Sequence record: NC_027330.1
Length of the DNA stretch: 45,403 nt
Reading direction: 5' to 3' (one strand)
Source: Escherichia phage ECBP5
The notes under the pieces are model-generated. The model was not told the origin of the DNA. It ran no database searches and saw nothing but the letters and a program-made list of their open reading frames with translations. Positions 1,961-43,510 of this stretch are shown one piece after another; the stretch's first letter is position 1, and every line of letters starts with the position of its first letter. A program made the translations under genes and the position numbers.

Positions 1961-4594
1961 ATGTACACTAGCGATGAGCTTTACCAGAAACAACTTGAGC
2001 TAGAAGGGGAGATGCATGGCTACGGTGTTACTCGCTTTGACCGTAACAACCAACGTGCGATTGATAGCGGTACACCTTCAGACACTGATTGGAACCGCCG
2101 TTTACTTTCTAACTTCATTGAGCCTATGGTGAAGGGTATTAATGCTTATAAGGAGTACTACAAGACTAAAGCTGGACGGCCTACAGTGGCTTTAAAGTAC
2201 ATCCGGCAGGTGCAGCCAGAGCAAGCGGCATACATCGCCATTAAGAACATTCTGGATGTGCTGGGTAGTACAACATTTGATGCTAACTGGCTTGTTACCA
2301 CTATTGGGCGTAGGATTGAAGACCAAGTAAGATTTACTAAGCTTGAGGAGGCTGCACCTAAGTATGTAGGCAAGGTTAAGGATAGCTTAGCTAAGCGCAA
2401 CTCTCTCCAGTATGCACACCAGCATAAGGTACTGGTCGCTACTGAGAAGAAGCTAGCGGAGAATCCAGACCGTGCTCAGCTTGAGCTGCCACGCTGGCAG
2501 GAGTGGGCTGAGGAGGATTGCAAGCACGTTGGTAGCTTGCTGGTCAATATCTTTGAGCAGTGTATTCTGTTTGAGGGTGAGCCAGTAATCCGCAAGGAGG
2601 TGCAGACAGTTCGCAAAGGTACACTGGTCTTCATCAAGCCTACTGAGAAAGTTACCAAGTGGATTCATGAGTTCAGAGAGGCTATTGGCGGGCTTGCTCC
2701 AGCTTACGCACCTTGCGTAGTTCCTCCGCTTGATTGGACTTCCCCATTTACTGGCGGGTTCCATACTGAAGCTGTTAGCAGCACTCTACATCTTGCTAAG
2801 GTTCGCAACAAGCGCCACCTGCGCAAGCTGACTAAAGAGCAGATGCCAGCAGTCTACAAGGCTGTAAATAACTTGCAGAAAGTGCGCTGGCGTATCTCTG
2901 AGCGTGTACTGGCAACCGCTAATACACTAGTGGAGCTGGGCTTGCCTTATGCGCTGCCGTCAAAGGATGAAAGCGACTGGAAAGAAAAGAATCCATGCCC
3001 TGTACCTGAGTACCTGCAAGACCTGCGAGGCGAGCAGCTGAAAGCGGCGCTTACTGCCAGCCAGTGGGAGGCTTTTCAAGAGTGGAAACAACTGGCACGC
3101 CAGAACTACGACGAGGAGAGCGAGCGCGTAGCAAGCTTTAGGGAAGTTGTTCGTACTTTAGGGCAGGCTAACCGCTACGTTGGCTTTGATGCAATCTACT
3201 TTGTGTACACGCTGGACTTTCGCGGGCGTGTCTACTGCCAGAGCAGCCTTGTAAGCCCACAGGGTGGCGACTTGCAGAAAGCCCTCATCAAGTTTGCGGA
3301 TGGTATGAAGCTGGGTGAGCGCGGCGAGTACTGGTTCAAGGTGCATGGCGCTAACGAATGGGGCTGGGATAAGAAGACCTTTGATGAGCGCGTAGCTCTG
3401 GTCAGCGAACCTGAGTTCTGCGAGATGTGCCTAGACATTGCCAGTGACCCAGTGACCTTCAATGACTGGATTAAGGCCGATAAGCCGTGGCAGTTCCTCA
3501 ACTGGTGCTTTGAGTATGCTGACTTCCTGAAGCATGTGCAATCAGCTGGCAACCCACAGGACTTTGTAAGCTATATCCCTTGTGCAATGGATGGTTCTTG
3601 CTCTGGCATCCAGCACTACTCTGCAATGCTGCGCGATACTGTTGGCGGTACTGCTGTTAACTTGGTTAACTCTGACAAGCCTAATGACATCTACGGAGAG
3701 GTCTGCAAGGTGACTATTAAAGAGCTGCAAGCAATTGCTGACGGCTCACAGGTATATGACAGCAAGATTGACCCTGTATTAGCTCAGCAGCTGGCGCAGG
3801 AGTGGCTACGTCTGCAACCAAATCGCAGCCTGACCAAGAAACCTGTTATGACCCTGCCTTACGGCAGCACTCAGTTAACCTGCCGTGAGCATGTTAGCCA
3901 GTGGCTTAAAGATTTGCAGAAGGAGGAGAACAAGCGAGCTAAGGCAGAGTTCAGAGAGCCTATGAAGGTACACGCTTTCGGCGATGCAGACAGCGCTATG
4001 CCGCTAAAGTTTGCTGAGTCTCTTATGACTAGCATTGTTTGGCACTCTATCGGCAAGGTTGTAGTAGCTGCGAGGGCTGGTATGGCTTACATCAAAGCCG
4101 TAACAAGCTCAGTGGCTAAGATGAATATGCCGCTTGAGTGGACTACTCCAACAGGCTTTATTGTCCGTCAGGAGATTTACCAGTTCACAACACGTCAGGT
4201 AAATACTCAGCTGCTGGGTGGAACTAAGTTTGTGGTCAGCACTAAGAGTAAAGATATTGATTATCATCGTATGATTAACTCCTGTGCGCCTAACTTTGTT
4301 CACTCAATGGATGCGAGCCACCTTACACTGGCAACTAACTACTTTGCAGATGCAGGTATTAGCAGCATTGCAGTAATCCATGATAGCTTTGGCACACATG
4401 CAGGAGCCACTGACCTGCTGCGTGAGCGTCTGCGAGCTTCAATGGTAGATATGTACGAACAGCATGACGTTATCACTAACTTCCTTGCTGAAACTGAGGG
4501 CAGACTTATGACAGCTTTTGAGCACATTCGAGTGCCAGAGCGTGGTGAGCTGCAACTTGATAGCATTAATCAATCTACATACGCTTTTGCGTGA
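1961..4594 (+). CDS. Single-subunit DNA-directed RNA polymerase (T7 gene 1 homologue)
   Basis: 877 aa; T7 RNAP-like segments DGSCSGIQHYSAMLRD, APNFVHSMDASHL, HDSFGTHA and C-terminal ...YAFA. Confidence 0.95.
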   Translation: MYTSDELYQKQLELEGEMHGYGVTRFDRNNQRAIDSGTPSDTDWNRRLLSNFIEPMVKGINAYKEYYKTKAGRPTVALKYIRQVQPEQAAYIAIKNILDVLGSTTFDANWLVTTIGRRIEDQVRFTKLEEAAPKYVGKVKDSLAKRNSLQYAHQHKVLVATEKKLAENPDRAQLELPRWQEWAEEDCKHVGSLLVNIFEQCILFEGEPVIRKEVQTVRKGTLVFIKPTEKVTKWIHEFREAIGGLAPAYAPCVVPPLDWTSPFTGGFHTEAVSSTLHLAKVRNKRHLRKLTKEQMPAVYKAVNNLQKVRWRISERVLATANTLVELGLPYALPSKDESDWKEKNPCPVPEYLQDLRGEQLKAALTASQWEAFQEWKQLARQNYDEESERVASFREVVRTLGQANRYVGFDAIYFVYTLDFRGRVYCQSSLVSPQGGDLQKALIKFADGMKLGERGEYWFKVHGANEWGWDKKTFDERVALVSEPEFCEMCLDIASDPVTFNDWIKADKPWQFLNWCFEYADFLKHVQSAGNPQDFVSYIPCAMDGSCSGIQHYSAMLRDTVGGTAVNLVNSDKPNDIYGEVCKVTIKELQAIADGSQVYDSKIDPVLAQQLAQEWLRLQPNRSLTKKPVMTLPYGSTQLTCREHVSQWLKDLQKEENKRAKAEFREPMKVHAFGDADSAMPLKFAESLMTSIVWHSIGKVVVAARAGMAYIKAVTSSVAKMNMPLEWTTPTGFIVRQEIYQFTTRQVNTQLLGGTKFVVSTKSKDIDYHRMINSCAPNFVHSMDASHLTLATNYFADAGISSIAVIHDSFGTHAGATDLLRERLRASMVDMYEQHDVITNFLAETEGRLMTAFEHIRVPERGELQLDSINQSTYAFA

Positions 4595-5743: not shown

Positions 5744-5948
5744 TGTTAAGAAAAGTAAAATGAGAGGTACTGGAAATGTTTACCCAGGCCACCTAAGGCC
5801 TGACACCTATGAAAGGTTTACTGTTGAGGCCATGTTTCACCAGTTTATGCAAGAATCAATAGGTGATAAGGTGGAGGTTGTAGCAGTAGTTGAGTACAGA
5901 GATGGCACTGTAGAAACTGTACCATTATCTGCTATTAGCTTTGGGTAA
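5730..5948 (+). CDS. Hypothetical protein (72 aa)
   Basis: GGGAGGG RBS upstream of ATG; followed by a terminator hairpin. Confidence 0.5.
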   Translation: MRKVNVKKSKMRGTGNVYPGHLRPDTYERFTVEAMFHQFMQESIGDKVEVVAVVEYRDGTVETVPLSAISFG

Positions 5949-5954
5949 GTCACA

Positions 5955-5984
5955 GGCAGCTACTTAGGTGGCTGCCTTTTCTTT
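5955..5984 (+). terminator. Rho-independent terminator candidate closing the early/RNAP operon
   Basis: GGCAGC...GCTGCC stem followed by TTTTCTTTT. Confidence 0.5.
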
Positions 5985-5994
5985 TATCTGGCTT

Positions 5995-6078
5995 GTACTA
6001 GTTTGATAGTACAGTTGTTGAGAGTTATTCTCAGTCTAGTATACTAGACTAGACCGAATCGTACTAGTTGGCTAGTAC
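5995..6078. repeat. Cluster of three short palindromes
   Basis: GTACTAGTTTGATAGTAC, AGTCTAGTATACTAGACT and GTACTAGTTGGCTAGTAC in tandem. Confidence 0.7.
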
Positions 6079-6153
6079 AACAGGCGTTCCTACGTGAATA
6101 CTTTAAAATTTTGCGGGCGATTATCCGTCAGAATTTAAAGTTTTCTGAAAATC

Positions 6154-6175
6154 TTTAGGCACTACAATAGGGAGC
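6154..6175 (+). promoter_or_regulatory. Phage-RNAP promoter candidate (consensus copy)
   Basis: TTTAGGCACTACAATAGGGAGC; resembles the T7-class promoter layout (CACTA..ATAGG core, +1 G). Confidence 0.6.
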
Positions 6176-6274
6176 AAGCTAAGTAAGTTAAGTAAGCTAT
6201 AGTAAGCTAACTAAAGCTTAGTAAGCTCCCCTCTTTCCCTCTTTATAGAGGGATATAATATAGTAAGCCTTATC

Positions 6275-6313
6275 AGCCCTCTTGAGTGTAGTAGCTCAGG
6301 AGGGCTTTATTTT
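6275..6313 (+). terminator. Rho-independent terminator candidate
   Basis: 12-bp stem AGCCCTCTTGAG/CTCAGGAGGGCT (one mismatch) followed by TTATTTT. Confidence 0.6.
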
Positions 6314-6331
6314 GTCTAGTACACTAGACTG
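6313..6331. repeat. Palindrome AGTCTAGTACACTAGACT family copy
   Basis: GTCTAGTACACTAGACTGG. Confidence 0.7.
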
Positions 6332-6335
6332 GAGA

Positions 6336-6357
6336 CTTAGGCACTCCAATAGATAAC
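6336..6357 (+). promoter_or_regulatory. Phage-RNAP promoter candidate (variant)
   Basis: CTTAGGCACTCCAATAGATAAC; two substitutions relative to consensus. Confidence 0.45.
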
Positions 6358-9863: not shown

Positions 9864-10136
9864 ATGGTTAAAGATACTAGCTGGCAGGCTTACCAAGAAA
9901 TCCTGCGCGGTGGTGTGGCTGTTAAGCAAGCTGAGAAAGTCTTGCAAGTTATTAACTACTTCCCTGAAGGTGTTACCCGTGCTCAGTTGGCTCAGGGTAT
10001 GAACATGCCAATCAACTCAGTTTGTGGTCGTGTCAACGAGCTGCTGAAAGCTGAGGTAATCTATGTGTCAGGTACTGGTAAGTGTCCAGTAACTGGTAGG
10101 ACTGTTGAGATGCTGAAGGTGGTTGAGTATGAGTAA
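9864..10136 (+). CDS. Putative winged-helix DNA-binding protein (90 aa)
   Basis: Helix-turn-helix-like segment VTRAQLAQGMNMPINSVCGRVNELLK followed by a beta-hairpin-like YVSGTGKCPVTGRTVEM; assignment by eye only. Confidence 0.5.
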   Translation: MVKDTSWQAYQEILRGGVAVKQAEKVLQVINYFPEGVTRAQLAQGMNMPINSVCGRVNELLKAEVIYVSGTGKCPVTGRTVEMLKVVEYE

Positions 10137-10815
10137 TATTATCGCAGGCGCTATTGAGCTTGAAGAAGCAAAAGAATCCAAGGCCAAAAGCTTCAGTGTA
10201 GAAGATGTGCTTAAGAAGATTAAGGAGCACACGTTTGGCTGTGTAGTAGCTGGTGGTTATTGTCGTGACGTGTTTCATGGGGTGGCACATAAGGACATTG
10301 ACATCTGCATGTATAACTTCCACCCAAATGATGCTGGCGAGGTTGTCTTAGCTAATATGTTGTGGAAGTGGTTATCAACCAATGTTGCTGCTGAGAACAT
10401 TACAGCAACTAGTGGGGAGGACTATGATGACAAGCGCATACATTTTGTATGGCATCTTCCCTATCACAATGTGGACATCATCTGCTGGAACGCACACTCC
10501 CATACAAAAGTATTAAGTGGCTTTGACTGCAACCTTAATCAGTTCTACTTGCCGTCAACTGTTCCTTACTTTGATGGTGAGTCTGAGTATACACCAGACA
10601 TCAAGGAACACCCTGTATACTTTGGAGATGATTGCCCTGACTTCTTATTATTCCTTAAAGATCTACCCGATGAACGTGTAACTAAGATGGTTCAGAAGCA
10701 TCAGGCATTCTACCCAGCAGCTTGGTGTGGAACACAGGAGCCTGTTGTCTACTTTGATAAGATGCAAGGCTTTCCATGTGGGTTTGATGAAGACTTAGAT
10801 GAGATAGCTTGGTAA
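10123..10815 (+). CDS. Pol-beta-superfamily nucleotidyltransferase, CCA-adding/poly(A) polymerase head-domain type (230 aa)
   Basis: GGYCRDVFHGVAHKDIDI matches the GGxVRD...KDxD signature of the tRNA nucleotidyltransferase/PAP family; downstream FDCNLNQ resembles a degenerate RRDxTIN motif. Confidence 0.6.
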   Translation: MSMSNIIAGAIELEEAKESKAKSFSVEDVLKKIKEHTFGCVVAGGYCRDVFHGVAHKDIDICMYNFHPNDAGEVVLANMLWKWLSTNVAAENITATSGEDYDDKRIHFVWHLPYHNVDIICWNAHSHTKVLSGFDCNLNQFYLPSTVPYFDGESEYTPDIKEHPVYFGDDCPDFLLFLKDLPDERVTKMVQKHQAFYPAAWCGTQEPVVYFDKMQGFPCGFDEDLDEIAW

Positions 10816-13802: not shown

Positions 13803-14567
13803 ATGTCTTTAGATAACTTTGACTTCGGCGCAGACCTAGCAGAAGCGTCTGGTGTCAAACGAGTAAACCCTGAAGTTGGCTTGCACTTTGCTCGTTTGCG
13901 TAGTGTGATTCACTTAGGCTCAATTGCTGCCATGTACCGTGGAAAGCCAAAGCCACCAGTTAACAAGGCTGCTTTCATCTTTGAACTTAAGGGCGACCTT
14001 GATGAGATTGATGACCTGCACCCTGACAACGGTGAGCCATTGTGCATCGGCATCGGGGTTAACCTTACCAAAGGTGACAATGCCAAGCTCACAGAAGTTA
14101 TGGCAGCTCTCATCTCTAAGAAGGAGATGGAGGAAGGTACTGTCAAAGGTATGGATGACCTGATTGGTCGTGTCTGCCAGCTTGACCTGAAGGGCAGTGA
14201 TGCCAAGGGTGATGACGGTAAGCCTAAGTACGTTGACATCAAATCACTCAGCCCTGTGGCTAAGGCATTCGCCGCACAGATTCCTGAGCTGTCAGTAGCT
14301 GGCGTAGGTCACTGCCGCCTGTCTCAGCTGTCTATGGCTGCGATGGATGAGCTGAACGTGTTCCTCGATGTCCAAGAGGGCATCATGAAATCTGAGGAGT
14401 GGAAAGCAGGAACGCACCCAGCAATCGCTCTGGTAGAGGAAATCCGCAAGGAGCGTCCGAACTATGCCAAGGCTGAGAAGAAGTCTGACAAAGGCGCTGA
14501 CGAGCCACAGGGCGAGCAGGAGCCGTCTAAGCCAGCTGAGCAGATGAACACCGATGAGGAGTTCTAG
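13803..14567 (+). CDS. Putative ssDNA-binding protein (T7 gp2.5-like by size and tail); acidic C-terminus ending in Phe
   Basis: AGGAGAAAC RBS before ATG 13803; C-terminus ...EQEPSKPAEQMNTDEEF; N-terminal DNFDFGA motif shared with the exonuclease; SSB call is an inference. Confidence 0.6.
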   Translation: MSLDNFDFGADLAEASGVKRVNPEVGLHFARLRSVIHLGSIAAMYRGKPKPPVNKAAFIFELKGDLDEIDDLHPDNGEPLCIGIGVNLTKGDNAKLTEVMAALISKKEMEEGTVKGMDDLIGRVCQLDLKGSDAKGDDGKPKYVDIKSLSPVAKAFAAQIPELSVAGVGHCRLSQLSMAAMDELNVFLDVQEGIMKSEEWKAGTHPAIALVEEIRKERPNYAKAEKKSDKGADEPQGEQEPSKPAEQMNTDEEF

Positions 14568-14609
14568 TCTAGTACACTAGACTGAAGCCGTACTAGTTAG
14601 CTAGTACGG
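14564..14609. repeat. Two adjacent palindromes (family copies)
   Basis: TCTAGTCTAGTACACTAGACTGA and CCGTACTAGTTAGCTAGTACGG. Confidence 0.7.
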
Positions 14610-14610
14610 T

Positions 14611-14633
14611 ATTAGGCACTACAATAGGAATAG
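14611..14633 (+). promoter_or_regulatory. Phage-RNAP promoter candidate (consensus copy)
   Basis: ATTAGGCACTACAATAGGAATAG. Confidence 0.6.
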
Positions 14634-14750
14634 AATGCTCAACTTATGCATCCCTGTATCTGGCGGTCGCTACAAAGGATACAGGTTGCCTATAGGCTGT
14701 AATGGTGTCCAAAGCCAACGGCTTGGGTGGTGCATAAGCATGAGCATTCT
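14634..14750 (+). other. Structured element between tandem promoters (nested inverted repeats); candidate small RNA or replication origin
   Basis: Outer inverted repeat ATGCTCAACTTATGCA / TGCATAAGCATGAGCAT enclosing hairpins CCTGTATC..GATACAGG and CCAAGCC..GGCTTGG; no ORF. Confidence 0.35.
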
Positions 14751-14755
14751 TAACC

Positions 14756-14779
14756 TATTAAGCACTACAATAGGAATAG
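14756..14779 (+). promoter_or_regulatory. Phage-RNAP promoter candidate
   Basis: CTATTAAGCACTACAATAGGAATAG. Confidence 0.55.
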
Positions 14780-14814
14780 TAGAATAGCCACACCGTGTGT
14801 GCTCCCTTCTCAAC

Positions 14815-14838
14815 CTATTAAGCACTAAATAGATATAG
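14815..14838 (+). promoter_or_regulatory. Promoter-like repeat with 2-bp deletion in the core (possibly weak or inactive)
   Basis: CTATTAAGCACTAAATAGATATAG; about 35-bp duplication of the preceding promoter block. Confidence 0.35.
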
Positions 14839-14875
14839 TGAATATCTCTTTCAAACTTTATGAGGAATTAATATT

Positions 14876-15235
14876 ATGGCATTTGTAATCAAATCTGATG
14901 TATCCAGTCGTATCGTAGCTGGCTCTTTCAAAAAGTCTGAGTTCTTCTATGTAGCTGATGAAGCTACTGGTGAGCTGGTTGGTAAGAAGTCTCACGACAT
15001 TCGTGAAGAAGCTGAACTGGAGCTGGCTGGTCTGGCAGGTCTGGAAGCTGGTCTGGAGTTCGCTAAGGCTCAGTTCCCTAAACTGTCCACTAAAGCTCAG
15101 GTTGGCAAAGCCAACGTAATCTCCGAGTATCTGGCTTGGGAAGCAGCTGGTAAGCCAGTTAAGTCTGTTGAAGAAGCAGACTCTGAAGAAGTACCGGAAG
15201 CTCCAGAAGCTGCCGCAGAAGACGAAACATTCTAA
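14876..15235 (+). CDS. Acidic 119-aa protein with SSB-like acidic C-terminal tail ending in Phe; probably highly expressed
   Basis: Preceded by three promoter-like motifs and followed by a strong terminator; net negative charge; C-terminus EAPEAAAEDETF. Confidence 0.75.
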   Translation: MAFVIKSDVSSRIVAGSFKKSEFFYVADEATGELVGKKSHDIREEAELELAGLAGLEAGLEFAKAQFPKLSTKAQVGKANVISEYLAWEAAGKPVKSVEEADSEEVPEAPEAAAEDETF

Positions 15236-15241
15236 TAAACT

Positions 15242-15279
15242 GCCCCATTGGTCAATTCGACCTTTGGGGCTTATTTTTG
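15242..15279 (+). terminator. Rho-independent terminator
   Basis: GCCCCATTGGTCAATTCGACCTTTGGGGC hairpin followed by TTATTTTTG. Confidence 0.65.
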
Positions 15280-15290
15280 TTGGAGGGTTT

Positions 15291-15413
15291 ATGCCTGTTT
15301 TCAAAAGGGTTTGTATGCTGTGTGGTACAGCGTTTTCTCCGGTTAAGAAAAGTCCATTCCTTTGCATAAGGTGTTACAGGAGTTGTGTTAAAGAGAGGGC
15401 TACTAATGTTTGA
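15291..15413 (+). CDS. Small zinc-ribbon-like protein (40 aa)
   Basis: GGAGGG RBS 5 nt upstream; CxxC...CxxC (CMLCG...CIRCY); stop overlaps the exonuclease start; not in ORF track. Confidence 0.4.
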   Translation: MPVFKRVCMLCGTAFSPVKKSPFLCIRCYRSCVKERATNV

Positions 15414-16491
15414 TAACTTCGACTTTGGGGCTGAGGTAACTGAACGTGTAAGCCCTGTAAAGCTGTGGCCTACTGAGGGTAGTGTGGTTGGCTTAGTAGA
15501 TGCTGACCTGTTGCCATATAACATTGCTTATGGCCTTGACCCGCTGAAGGTATTGCGAGCACAGAACAGAGTAGAGTCAGGTGACTGCTCCAGTATTAGC
15601 GAGACACCAGAGTTTATTGATGCTGCTGAGTCTATGGCTACCCGCATGAACAACTGGCTTGAGGAAGCTGGCTGTGATGCTGCCATTCCATATATGACGA
15701 AATCAGATAGCAACTTCAGGCTTGATGTAGCTTTCTCCAGACCGTACAAAGGTCAGCGTAAGAAGGAGAAGCCACCATTCTTCTATGAGTTGCGTGACTT
15801 CCTTATCAGCCACATGGGTGCTGTGATGTCAGATGGTGAGGAGGCTGATGACCTTATCTCTATGGAGGCTGAGCGTCGCAACAAGCTGCTTGAGGAACAG
15901 GGCATTGTATTAGGCTCACCTACTCATAAAGAGTTCTGTGACTTTGTTATCATCTCATCTGACAAGGATAGCCGCATCACAGCTGGCAGACACTATGACC
16001 CTTATCACATGAAGCTCACCTTTGGTACACCTGTTGGTGAGCTTGAGCCTGTTTATAAAGACGGGAAGATTAAGACTATCAAGGGTAGCGGCTTGCGCTT
16101 CTTTTATGCTCAGCTTCTAATGGGCGACCAGATTGATAATTACACTGGTATCCCTCGCTACAGGTTGCAGAAGGTCTACGAGCTGCTTGGTCAGCTTAAG
16201 ACAGAGCAAGAGCTTTATTATGCTGTACTTGAAGCTTATAAAGATAAGTATGGCAAGGGTATGGTGGTGGAAAACTACCGTGGAACTAAGAAGTTCTATG
16301 ATGACTACATGGATGACTTTGGAGTACCGCCACCTGATTATGAACTTTGGAAAGGCAAGAAAGCTTTCCTCACACCTTATCAGCTGATGGTAGAGCAAGG
16401 GAGACTTGCGTACATGCAGAAGTTTAAGGGTGACATCTGGAGAGCTAATTGCAAGCTTCCATCAGGTGGAGACTTGAGCGCATGGAGTTAA
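15406..16491 (+). CDS. 5'-3' exonuclease (T7 gp6-like, FEN family)
   Basis: VGLVDADLLPY, IISSDKDSRI and GDQIDNYTGIP parallel T7 gp6 segments; start at ATG 15406 (AGAGAGG RBS). Confidence 0.88.
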   Translation: MFDNFDFGAEVTERVSPVKLWPTEGSVVGLVDADLLPYNIAYGLDPLKVLRAQNRVESGDCSSISETPEFIDAAESMATRMNNWLEEAGCDAAIPYMTKSDSNFRLDVAFSRPYKGQRKKEKPPFFYELRDFLISHMGAVMSDGEEADDLISMEAERRNKLLEEQGIVLGSPTHKEFCDFVIISSDKDSRITAGRHYDPYHMKLTFGTPVGELEPVYKDGKIKTIKGSGLRFFYAQLLMGDQIDNYTGIPRYRLQKVYELLGQLKTEQELYYAVLEAYKDKYGKGMVVENYRGTKKFYDDYMDDFGVPPPDYELWKGKKAFLTPYQLMVEQGRLAYMQKFKGDIWRANCKLPSGGDLSAWS

Positions 16492-24008: not shown

Positions 24009-24030
24009 ATTAGGCACTACAATAGGAGAA
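24009..24030 (+). promoter_or_regulatory. Phage-RNAP promoter candidate (consensus copy) driving the capsid gene
   Basis: ATTAGGCACTACAATAGGAGAA. Confidence 0.6.
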
Positions 24031-25219: not shown

Positions 25220-25250
25220 TGCCCCGTCCTCTTGGATGGGGCTTATTTTT
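25220..25250 (+). terminator. Rho-independent terminator (T-phi-like, after capsid gene)
   Basis: GCCCCGTCC-TCTT-GGATGGGGC hairpin followed by TTATTTTTG. Confidence 0.7.
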
Positions 25251-43033: not shown

Positions 43034-43486
43034 CTAGTGGCTGGTCAGGCAGCTGCTGTGAGCTGGCTAGGTGGCTTACGGATAGCCGATTGTGAGCAGC
43101 CAGTGAGCCGCTGTGGGCTTCAGCTCCGCTGTGGCTACGGTTGGCTTGCCAGTGGCTTGAGGCGCTCTGTGAGCTGCTGAGGGCTGTGGCTTGCTGTACT
43201 CGTGTGCTAGTACGCTGCTGTGTGTATCTGTCTTTAGTCTGATGGGCTACTGTCTTTAGTTTGCTGCACCACTGGTAGCTTATTGGGTAGCTCATAGGTA
43301 GCTTACAAGGCTCACAGCTTGCTGGTACTACTGAGGGCTTACTAGGTAGCTTGCTATCACTGACTAGGTAGCTGCTGTTAGTTCACTAGGTAGCTAGCTA
43401 TGGCTTACTAGGTAGTTACTAGGTGGATTGATGTAAGCTTACTCAAGCTCTCTCTTAGTGCATCATTCGATGCACAATATAAGAAG

Positions 43487-43510
43487 AATAAGACACTACA
43501 ATAAGAATAG
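43487..43510 (+). promoter_or_regulatory. Phage-RNAP promoter-like motif (variant) near presumed left end
   Basis: AATAAGACACTACAATAAGAATAG. Confidence 0.4.

Follow-up and report, generated by a model that had tools for sequence, protein, structure and literature searches.

A predicted high-output transcription unit for an SP6 gp20-family gene in Escherichia phage ECBP5, with a variable RNA slot between its promoters

Results

The locus and its setting

We describe here a compact locus of Escherichia phage ECBP5, a Gajwadongvirus-like phage of the T7 supergroup, that carries a single small gene together with a dense set of predicted expression signals. The sequence analysed, called the window throughout, is the whole record NC_027330.1 (45,403 nucleotides, one strand, 5' to 3'), and all of the features of the locus lie on the plus strand. 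The open reading frame (ORF) at 14876-15235, recognised earlier in a reading of the sequence alone, is confirmed and encodes a 119-residue protein of the SP6 gp20 (phrog_4429) family, as judged by profile match and tblastn. It is situated between a gp18-like gene, coding for a 255-residue protein, and the 5'-3' exonuclease gene, and has its own promoter and terminator; a divergent homolog too adjoins a 5'-3' exonuclease gene. Upstream are two stem-loops and three copies of the phage promoter (P1, P2, and P3), which are separated by two inserts referred to as cargo 1 and cargo 2. We propose that the locus is a dedicated high-output transcription unit, and consider its architecture and high expression, taken together, to be very probable.

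Expression signals

The promoter motif ATTARGCACTACAATAG has 12 matches in the genome at three or fewer mismatches, against 0.37 expected. Three copies had been reported at this locus in the sequence-only reading, and all are present, inside 222 bp: P1 (14611-14627) and P2 (14757-14773) match perfectly, and P3 (14817-14832) has a 1-nt deletion in the core (CACTA-AATAG). By analogy with the SP6 promoter, we take transcription to start at the final G of the motif, which places the +1 of P1 at G14627. P1 is the same as the promoters at 24009 and 38284 over the 17-nt motif (through +1) and at +2.

Comparison with related phages gives a more complex picture of how the three copies are related. In all 18 relatives inspected there are exactly two promoters, flanking a variable slot; the upstream one is consensus-like (ATTAGGCACTACAATAGGA) and the downstream one reads ATTAAGCACTACAATAGATA. 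ECBP5 P2 matches the downstream promoter of the relatives in its left flank and -12 base (ACCT-ATTAAGCAC) and carries the initial transcribed sequence of P1 (GGAATAG), and P3, the gene-proximal copy, keeps the ancestral GATATAG start minus one core base, at the position where the relatives read CACTACAATAGATATAG. On this comparison P2 is a P2/P1 chimera, and the third promoter copy is as predicted for an unequal recombination event inside the core that the promoters share, an event that added the short insert at 14774-14816. This insert, cargo 2, is a spacer that ends in ACCT and folds into a weak hairpin (-7.3 kcal/mol, z -0.55), and is missing from all of the relatives inspected. The chimeric P2 and the intact start of P3 therefore indicate that the triple promoter is a recent, lineage-specific rearrangement and not an ancestral design for extra output, and the extra copy may compensate for the damaged P3. 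The earlier proposal that three promoters feed the gene stands as to their number but is not supported as a reading of the anatomy, in that P1 would first transcribe a 130-nt structured element and the third copy is a recombination product beside a damaged one. Between P3 and the gene is a 5' leader (14832-14875) that is AT-rich (GC 0.23, compared with 0.46 for the genome), with a Shine-Dalgarno sequence, GAGGA, at 14862-14866; the leader is conserved in the relatives.

The two palindromes noted previously upstream of the promoters are borne out as adjacent stem-loops with a joint predicted stability of -24.6 kcal/mol (z -4.9). Stem-loop 1 (14565-14584, AGTCTAGT/ACTAGACT) overlaps the stop codon of the gp18-like gene, and stem-loop 2 (14587-14610, CCGTACTAG-TTAG-CTAGTACGG) abuts P1. 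Alignment of 12 relatives shows compensatory changes at three of the seven pairs of stem-loop 1, with 93% of cells paired, and a nearly invariant sequence for stem-loop 2, six of whose nine pairs never vary. Both recur elsewhere: the stem-loop 2 core GTACTAGnnnnCTAGTAC is found exactly at 6061 and with one mismatch each at 5995 and 43196, and the sequence of stem-loop 1 is repeated at 6316-6331, directly before a promoter at 6336. Copies thus stand just 5' of phage promoters both here and at 5.9-6.4 kb, and the stem-loops are therefore a reusable module that is not unique to the gene for the 119-residue protein.

At the other end of the unit, the strong terminator that had been proposed is supported by a hairpin spanning 15242-15270 with CUUAUUUUUGUU after it (predicted at -20.2 kcal/mol, z -4.7; the whole intrinsic-type element extends over 15242-15282), which ranks second in a genome-wide scan of plus-strand sites consisting of a hairpin and a U-run and is among the three strongest terminators of the genome. 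Its ending, GGGGCTTATTTTTGTT, is common to a terminator at 25244 that follows the putative capsid gene.

The sequence-only reading also held that only the capsid gene has a comparable density of expression signals, and this is not the case, in that the region at 5940-6340 is about as dense: the palindromes of the present locus recur there beside two promoters and two terminators. This region has a terminator at about 5955-5990, palindrome copies at 5995 and 6044-6078, and a consensus-like promoter at 6154, which is predicted to give a transcript of about 147 nt that contains GTAAGCT repeats and no obvious ORF and folds from its +1 with a z of -3.1. The strongest terminator in the genome follows at about 6275-6316, and then the stem-loop 1 copy and the promoter at 6336. 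The region could be either a promoter-to-terminator small RNA or a replication origin, its position being equivalent to that of the T7 origin. Close to the right end of the genome, direct repeats resembling CTAGGTAGCT are densely packed at 43200-43440, upstream of a promoter-like site at 43488.

A structured RNA between P1 and P2

Cargo 1 (14627-14756) has a predicted fold of -57.7 kcal/mol with a z of -5.98, and none of 200 shuffled sequences was as stable. The structure is closed by a 20-bp duplex that pairs 14632-14641 with 14741-14750 and 14643-14652 with 14729-14738, such that two 10-bp segments are separated by a 1x2 internal loop, with pair probabilities of 0.93-1.0, and it is capped by a branched domain. 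In its predicted fold, cargo 1 has the structural hallmarks of a T7-type RNase III site, namely about two helical turns of duplex, an internal loop, and a location in an intercistronic leader. We propose from this folding that P1 transcribes an orphan 130-nt structured non-coding RNA before reaching P2.

No relatives of cargo 1 were found. Searches with blastn of phages, E. coli genomes, and plasmids were empty, exact 26-mer and 20-mer scans found no copy in viral or genome contigs, and a blastn-short comparison with the window and with every fetched locus gave chance-level matches only. Rfam returned only noise at E <= 10 for either a 2 kb or a 321 nt segment, RF00005 had no match in the 321 nt segment even at that cutoff, and ARAGORN found no tRNA. 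Two further candidates were set aside. A 50-residue ORF at 14635-14787 was rejected as coding upon inspection, as it has no proper ribosome-binding site, starts within the closing duplex, and reads through P2. Mimicry of a clustered regularly interspaced short palindromic repeat (CRISPR) was also considered, in that an 8-mer of UUGCCUAUAGGCUG is also present in a type I-F repeat, but only three stem pairs would be good and such a match has a chance expectation of about 0.1-0.3.

The slot in related phages

The content of the slot is non-homologous between lineages, and consists of tRNA-like elements that have no anticodon loop, short hairpins, a 67-residue ORF, or almost nothing, with flanking DNA that is about 95% identical between close relatives while the cargo is unrelated. 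The inserts of Roth32 and of two of the fetched loci (L006 and L012) score 35.3-40.2 bits against the Rfam tRNA model (RF00005), for which the gathering threshold is 29, and that of L017 scores 23.6 bits. Roth32-type inserts retain acceptor, D, and T arms, but where the 7-nt anticodon loop would be, a 13-nt insertion (CCA/UGG) forms an extended stem capped by a GAAA tetraloop, and ARAGORN rejects them. Without this loop the elements are tRNA-like and cannot decode. Two of them, at 2353-2430 in L001 and 1153-1230 in L019, carry tRNA-Ser labels in GenBank and are likewise rejected by ARAGORN; the label is almost certainly wrong, and likely a pipeline mis-annotation.

Of the other inserts, those of L009 and Nufs112 have canonical T arms, and the L009 insert folds as a cloverleaf with a 7-nt T-loop. 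JSF38, PP99, DT115P1, MR4, Tola, and KL01 have other hairpins in the slot. Between Roth32 and L012, one T-stem pair changes from C-G to A-U and an A1.G72 mismatch becomes A1-U72, and these changes argue for selection on RNA structure. Most of the inserts begin right after the initial transcribed sequence of the promoter, and ACCT stands just before P2 in 11 of the 18 relatives (12 of 19 loci including the window); the tRNA-like elements end in A-CC. Neither the variable slot nor the 119-residue gene is described in the literature searched on Gajwadongvirus, SP6 gp20, and Autographiviridae tRNA-like elements, the SP6 genome papers lying outside that scope, and such a hypervariable RNA slot, flanked by promoters and in some phages holding tRNA-like elements that lack an anticodon, seems to have gone undescribed in the searchable literature.

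In two other phages, Pectobacterium phage PP1 (366-640 in L031) and Klebsiella phage PYH-2 (410-640 in L032), a non-coding stretch of about 250-300 nt is located before the single promoter of the homolog. It is partly conserved between the two and has no Rfam match. A separate observation concerns the DNA polymerase gene, which in relatives is interrupted or followed by matches to group I introns, near or below the Rfam threshold, along with HNH endonuclease ORFs (L009 234-877, L004 489-1132, and L001 278-490); the ECBP5 polymerase gene is apparently uninterrupted.

The 119-residue protein and its acidic tail

The protein matches phrog_4429 over its full length (E 1.2e-42; residues 3-119 align to positions 2-121 of the 121-position profile). 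Using tblastn, the family is found in 182 phage records, including those of SP6 (gp20) and K1E (gp18), in all of which it is annotated as hypothetical. Only 34 clusters were recovered when 1.84 billion cluster representatives were searched with a profile; nearly all are of small proteins of similar size, and the two long matches among them are apparent repeat artefacts. No match above threshold is present in Pfam or NCBIfam. AlphaFold predicts a confident domain at residues 1-96 with a long beta-hairpin and three helices, for which the predicted local distance difference test (pLDDT) values by block are 82-90 up to residue 90 and fall from about residue 91 onwards, and a structure search of solved and viral structures gave no convincing fold match to this domain. 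Lys38, Phe62, Lys73, Lys78, and Trp88 are invariant in 33 aligned homologs, and Lys96 is nearly so.

With weights for E. coli, the gene has a codon adaptation index of 0.670, the highest of the 56 ORFs; the putative capsid gene has 0.512 and the median is 0.30. In SP6 the order is similar, with gp20 first (0.625), gp18 second (0.515), and the capsid protein third (0.503). The very high expression suggested in the sequence-only reading is in good agreement with these values and with a unit that runs from phage promoters to a strong terminator. Because the top codon bias, own promoter, and strong terminator are also seen for SP6 gp20, high abundance is predicted to be a trait of the family.

An acidic stretch with a terminal phenylalanine, which had been remarked on for three of the encoded proteins, is confirmed for exactly three of the 56 ORFs: the primase-helicase (DTDGEF), the gp18-like 255-residue protein (TDEEF), and the 119-residue protein (EDETF). 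In the family of the latter, the terminal residue is Phe in 32 and Tyr in one of the 33 aligned members, following an acidic linker that is variable. The tail is predicted to be disordered (pLDDT <50 at residues 107-117) and has a net charge of -10 (residues 97-119), so that it combines disorder, acidity, and a conserved aromatic end in the manner of an SSB-type docking tail. The idea of an abundant protein with such a tail is thus supported by both the codon adaptation and the conservation of the terminal aromatic residue (33/33). Two side observations concern protein termini. Immediately before the DNA polymerase gene, a 228-residue ORF (10129-10815) has the C-terminus EDLDEIAW; this acidic-aromatic ending is weaker and falls outside of the strict count of three. 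In addition, the 255-residue protein (13803-13850) and the 5'-3' exonuclease (15406-15450) share an N-terminal peptide, MSLDNFDFGADLAE and MFDNFDFGAEVTE respectively, which may be a common docking motif. The assignment of an oligonucleotide/oligosaccharide-binding (OB) fold to the 255-residue protein, and its description as SSB-like, comes from structure search alone, and T7 gp2.5 gives no sequence signal against it.

The net acidity ascribed to the 119-residue protein holds for the protein overall, but is attributable to the tail alone, as residues 1-96 have a net charge of -1. DNA mimicry, one of the roles that had been put forward, is contradicted by this distribution: the predicted folded domain is near-neutral, the excess negative charge is all in the disordered tail, and the densely negative folded body of an Ocr-like mimic is absent as judged by the net charge of each region. 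The suggested equivalence to T7 gp5.5/gp5.9 is reduced to one of genome position, with hhalign probabilities of about 0.1% for each of gp5.5, gp5.7, and gp5.9.

Discussion

The properties of the ECBP5 locus suggest a model in which a highly expressed protein and a structured leader RNA have separate roles. The 119-residue protein would accumulate to very high, stoichiometric levels while DNA metabolism is under way, and through its acidic Phe tail would bind a partner that it shares with the tails of the gp18-like SSB and the primase-helicase. This partner would most likely be the phage DNA polymerase, which would make the protein an accessory of the replisome or of recombination; we propose such a tail-docking role from the similarity of the three termini, but consider it less likely than not. 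The cargo RNA would act in cis as RNA-processing or stabilising punctuation, in ECBP5 as an RNase III-type duplex and in the relatives through tRNA-like elements that would serve as RNase P/Z-type processing sites, and would separate the gp18-like and gp20-like messages and set their ends; the upstream stem-loops would shield the 3' end of the upstream mRNA. We regard a cis-processing role as possible but short of probable from the predicted structures. The explanation as a whole, with a dedicated high-output unit for an SP6-gp20-family gene and roles for both the RNA and the protein, is tentative, and we would place it slightly below an even chance of being right.

Several features of the T7 group provide a framework for this model. 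In T7, the acidic Phe tails of gp2.5 and gp4 attach to the DNA polymerase, and many of the promoters have an RNase III site after them (for example phi1.1A/phi1.1B-R1.1 and phi6.5-R6.5). The disordered acidic aromatic-ended segment of the 119-residue protein is like the tails of T7 gp2.5/gp4 and E. coli SSB, but its body is a beta-hairpin and three-helix domain and not the OB fold of SSB-type proteins. Similarly, tandem promoters, a long irregular leader duplex, and a promoter-to-terminator unit for an abundant product are all seen in T7 units (phi1.1A/phi1.1B-R1.1, phi6.5-R6.5, and phi10...Tphi). ECBP5 departs from these in that the structured element is between the promoters, is wholly different in close relatives, and is tRNA-like in several of them, and its cleavage is putative. 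The homologous SP6 gp20/K1E gp18 family shares the pre-exonuclease position, a dedicated promoter, a terminator directly 3', top codon adaptation (seen in SP6), and an acidic Phe tail (SEEEEF). However, SP6 has one promoter and the gp19 ORF upstream, whereas the ECBP5 clade has two promoters (three in ECBP5) around a non-coding RNA slot. The T4 PeSL elements, mobile regulatory cassettes in which promoter and stem-loop repeats mediate modular shuffling, are also similar in that repeated promoter and stem-loop modules flank variable inserts, and one of the ECBP5 junctions is visibly recombinant. The present case differs from PeSL in that the promoters belong to a T7-like phage and are of the phage-RNA-polymerase type, and in that non-coding RNAs, not ORFs, make up most of the inserts.

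Not all of the observations fit this model, and a number of them weigh against it. The slot is only 20 nt in L014 and L016 and is thus nearly empty, and in L015 it has a 67-residue ORF with its own ribosome-binding site, so the RNA is not required for expressing the gene. Most of the inserts of the relatives are not unusually stable (z -0.5 to -2.6, and one of +1.6). The SP6 primase-helicase lacks a Phe tail, ending in ENTQEFNG, and three distant members of the protein family have no terminal aromatic residue, and the pattern of three tails is therefore not universal. Finally, the codon adaptation weights are from an E. coli table that may be approximate, and may not be those of the host.

There are several other models to consider. 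The protein could be an inhibitor in host takeover, titrating a host factor through its abundance, acting as a functional counterpart of gp5.5/gp5.9, or mimicking the host SSB C-terminus, which in E. coli is likewise acidic and ends in Phe and with which it would compete for SSB-binding enzymes. T7 gp5.5 is abundant and binds H-NS and tRNA, and gp5.9 inhibits RecBCD; these proteins and gp5.7 are also small and encoded between the DNA polymerase and exonuclease genes, and the extreme codon adaptation of the ECBP5 gene would suit titration of an abundant target. However, there is no detectable sequence relation to gp5.5 (DUF2675), gp5.7, or gp5.9 and no Pfam or NCBIfam match, the folded domain is not acidic and its net charge of -1 offers no DNA-like charged surface, and a RecBCD inhibitor presumably need not out-express the capsid protein; we consider this model improbable. 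To a similar extent we doubt that the arrangement is a neutral by-product, in which promoter copies are recombination hot spots, the cargo and third promoter are passenger DNA, and only one promoter matters for expression. The chimeric P2 does record recombination between promoters, P3 is decaying with its 1-nt deletion, and the cargo is non-homologous, variable in length, sometimes an ORF, and sometimes absent. But passenger DNA is not expected to have a z of -6 with a 20-bp closing duplex, tRNA-like T arms with a compensatory change would not persist, and the two-promoter arrangement is kept in every relative inspected.

The remaining models assign the slot a role other than punctuation of the message. 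Cargo RNAs acting in trans could sequester host enzymes directed at tRNA or double-stranded RNA, as decoys or sponges that change fast in an arms race, and the dedicated consensus promoter, the extreme stability of the ECBP5 RNA (z -6), the fast turnover of cargo between flanks that are about 95% identical, and the retention of acceptor, D, and T arms without an anticodon loop are all consistent with this. Against it, the sequence ahead of P2 has neither a terminator nor a defined 3' end, some relatives keep almost nothing in the slot, no known RNA family is matched, and the CRISPR-repeat resemblance is weak, such that a trans-acting RNA seems quite unlikely. Less likely again is a replication origin, for which the precedent is the T7 primary origin, where the tandem promoters phi1.1A/phi1.1B precede an AT-rich region. 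Here, P1 drives no separate ORF, the AT-rich leader has a GC of 0.23, and tandem promoters are kept in 18 of 18 relatives even with only 20 nt between them. P1 transcripts or ACC(A)-ended tRNA-like RNAs could act as primers, in keeping with the ACCT before P2 in 11 of 18 relatives and the A-CC ends of the tRNA-like elements, since in T7, DNA synthesis can be primed both by transcripts of the phage RNA polymerase and by tRNAs ending in ACCA. The combination of tandem promoters and AT-rich region is not specific, however, and 5940-6340 fits it as well or better, being situated at the T7-origin-equivalent position after the putative RNA polymerase ORF (1961-4594) with two promoters, repeats, and AT-rich stretches. 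Moreover, SP6, PP1, and PYH-2 have a single promoter here, and the AT-rich stretch is also a plain ribosome-binding leader. A variant that draws on both of these models would have the slot as a launch pad for fast-evolving trans-acting small RNAs, either nuclease decoys or ACC(A)-ended primers, with the gp20-family protein as their RNA/tRNA-binding partner, in parallel with T7 gp5.5-tRNA-H-NS without homology to it; we regard this as a long shot.

The locus is of interest on two counts. The gene is the most codon-optimised in the two phages tested (ECBP5 and SP6), above the major capsid gene, and across 182 phage records its product has neither a function nor a fold assigned. The SSB-type tail, and Phe119 in particular, offers a concrete handle on that function. 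The slot, in turn, could show how messages are punctuated and stabilised in T7-like phages that do not use the RNase III sites of T7, or could expose a new class of phage small RNA.

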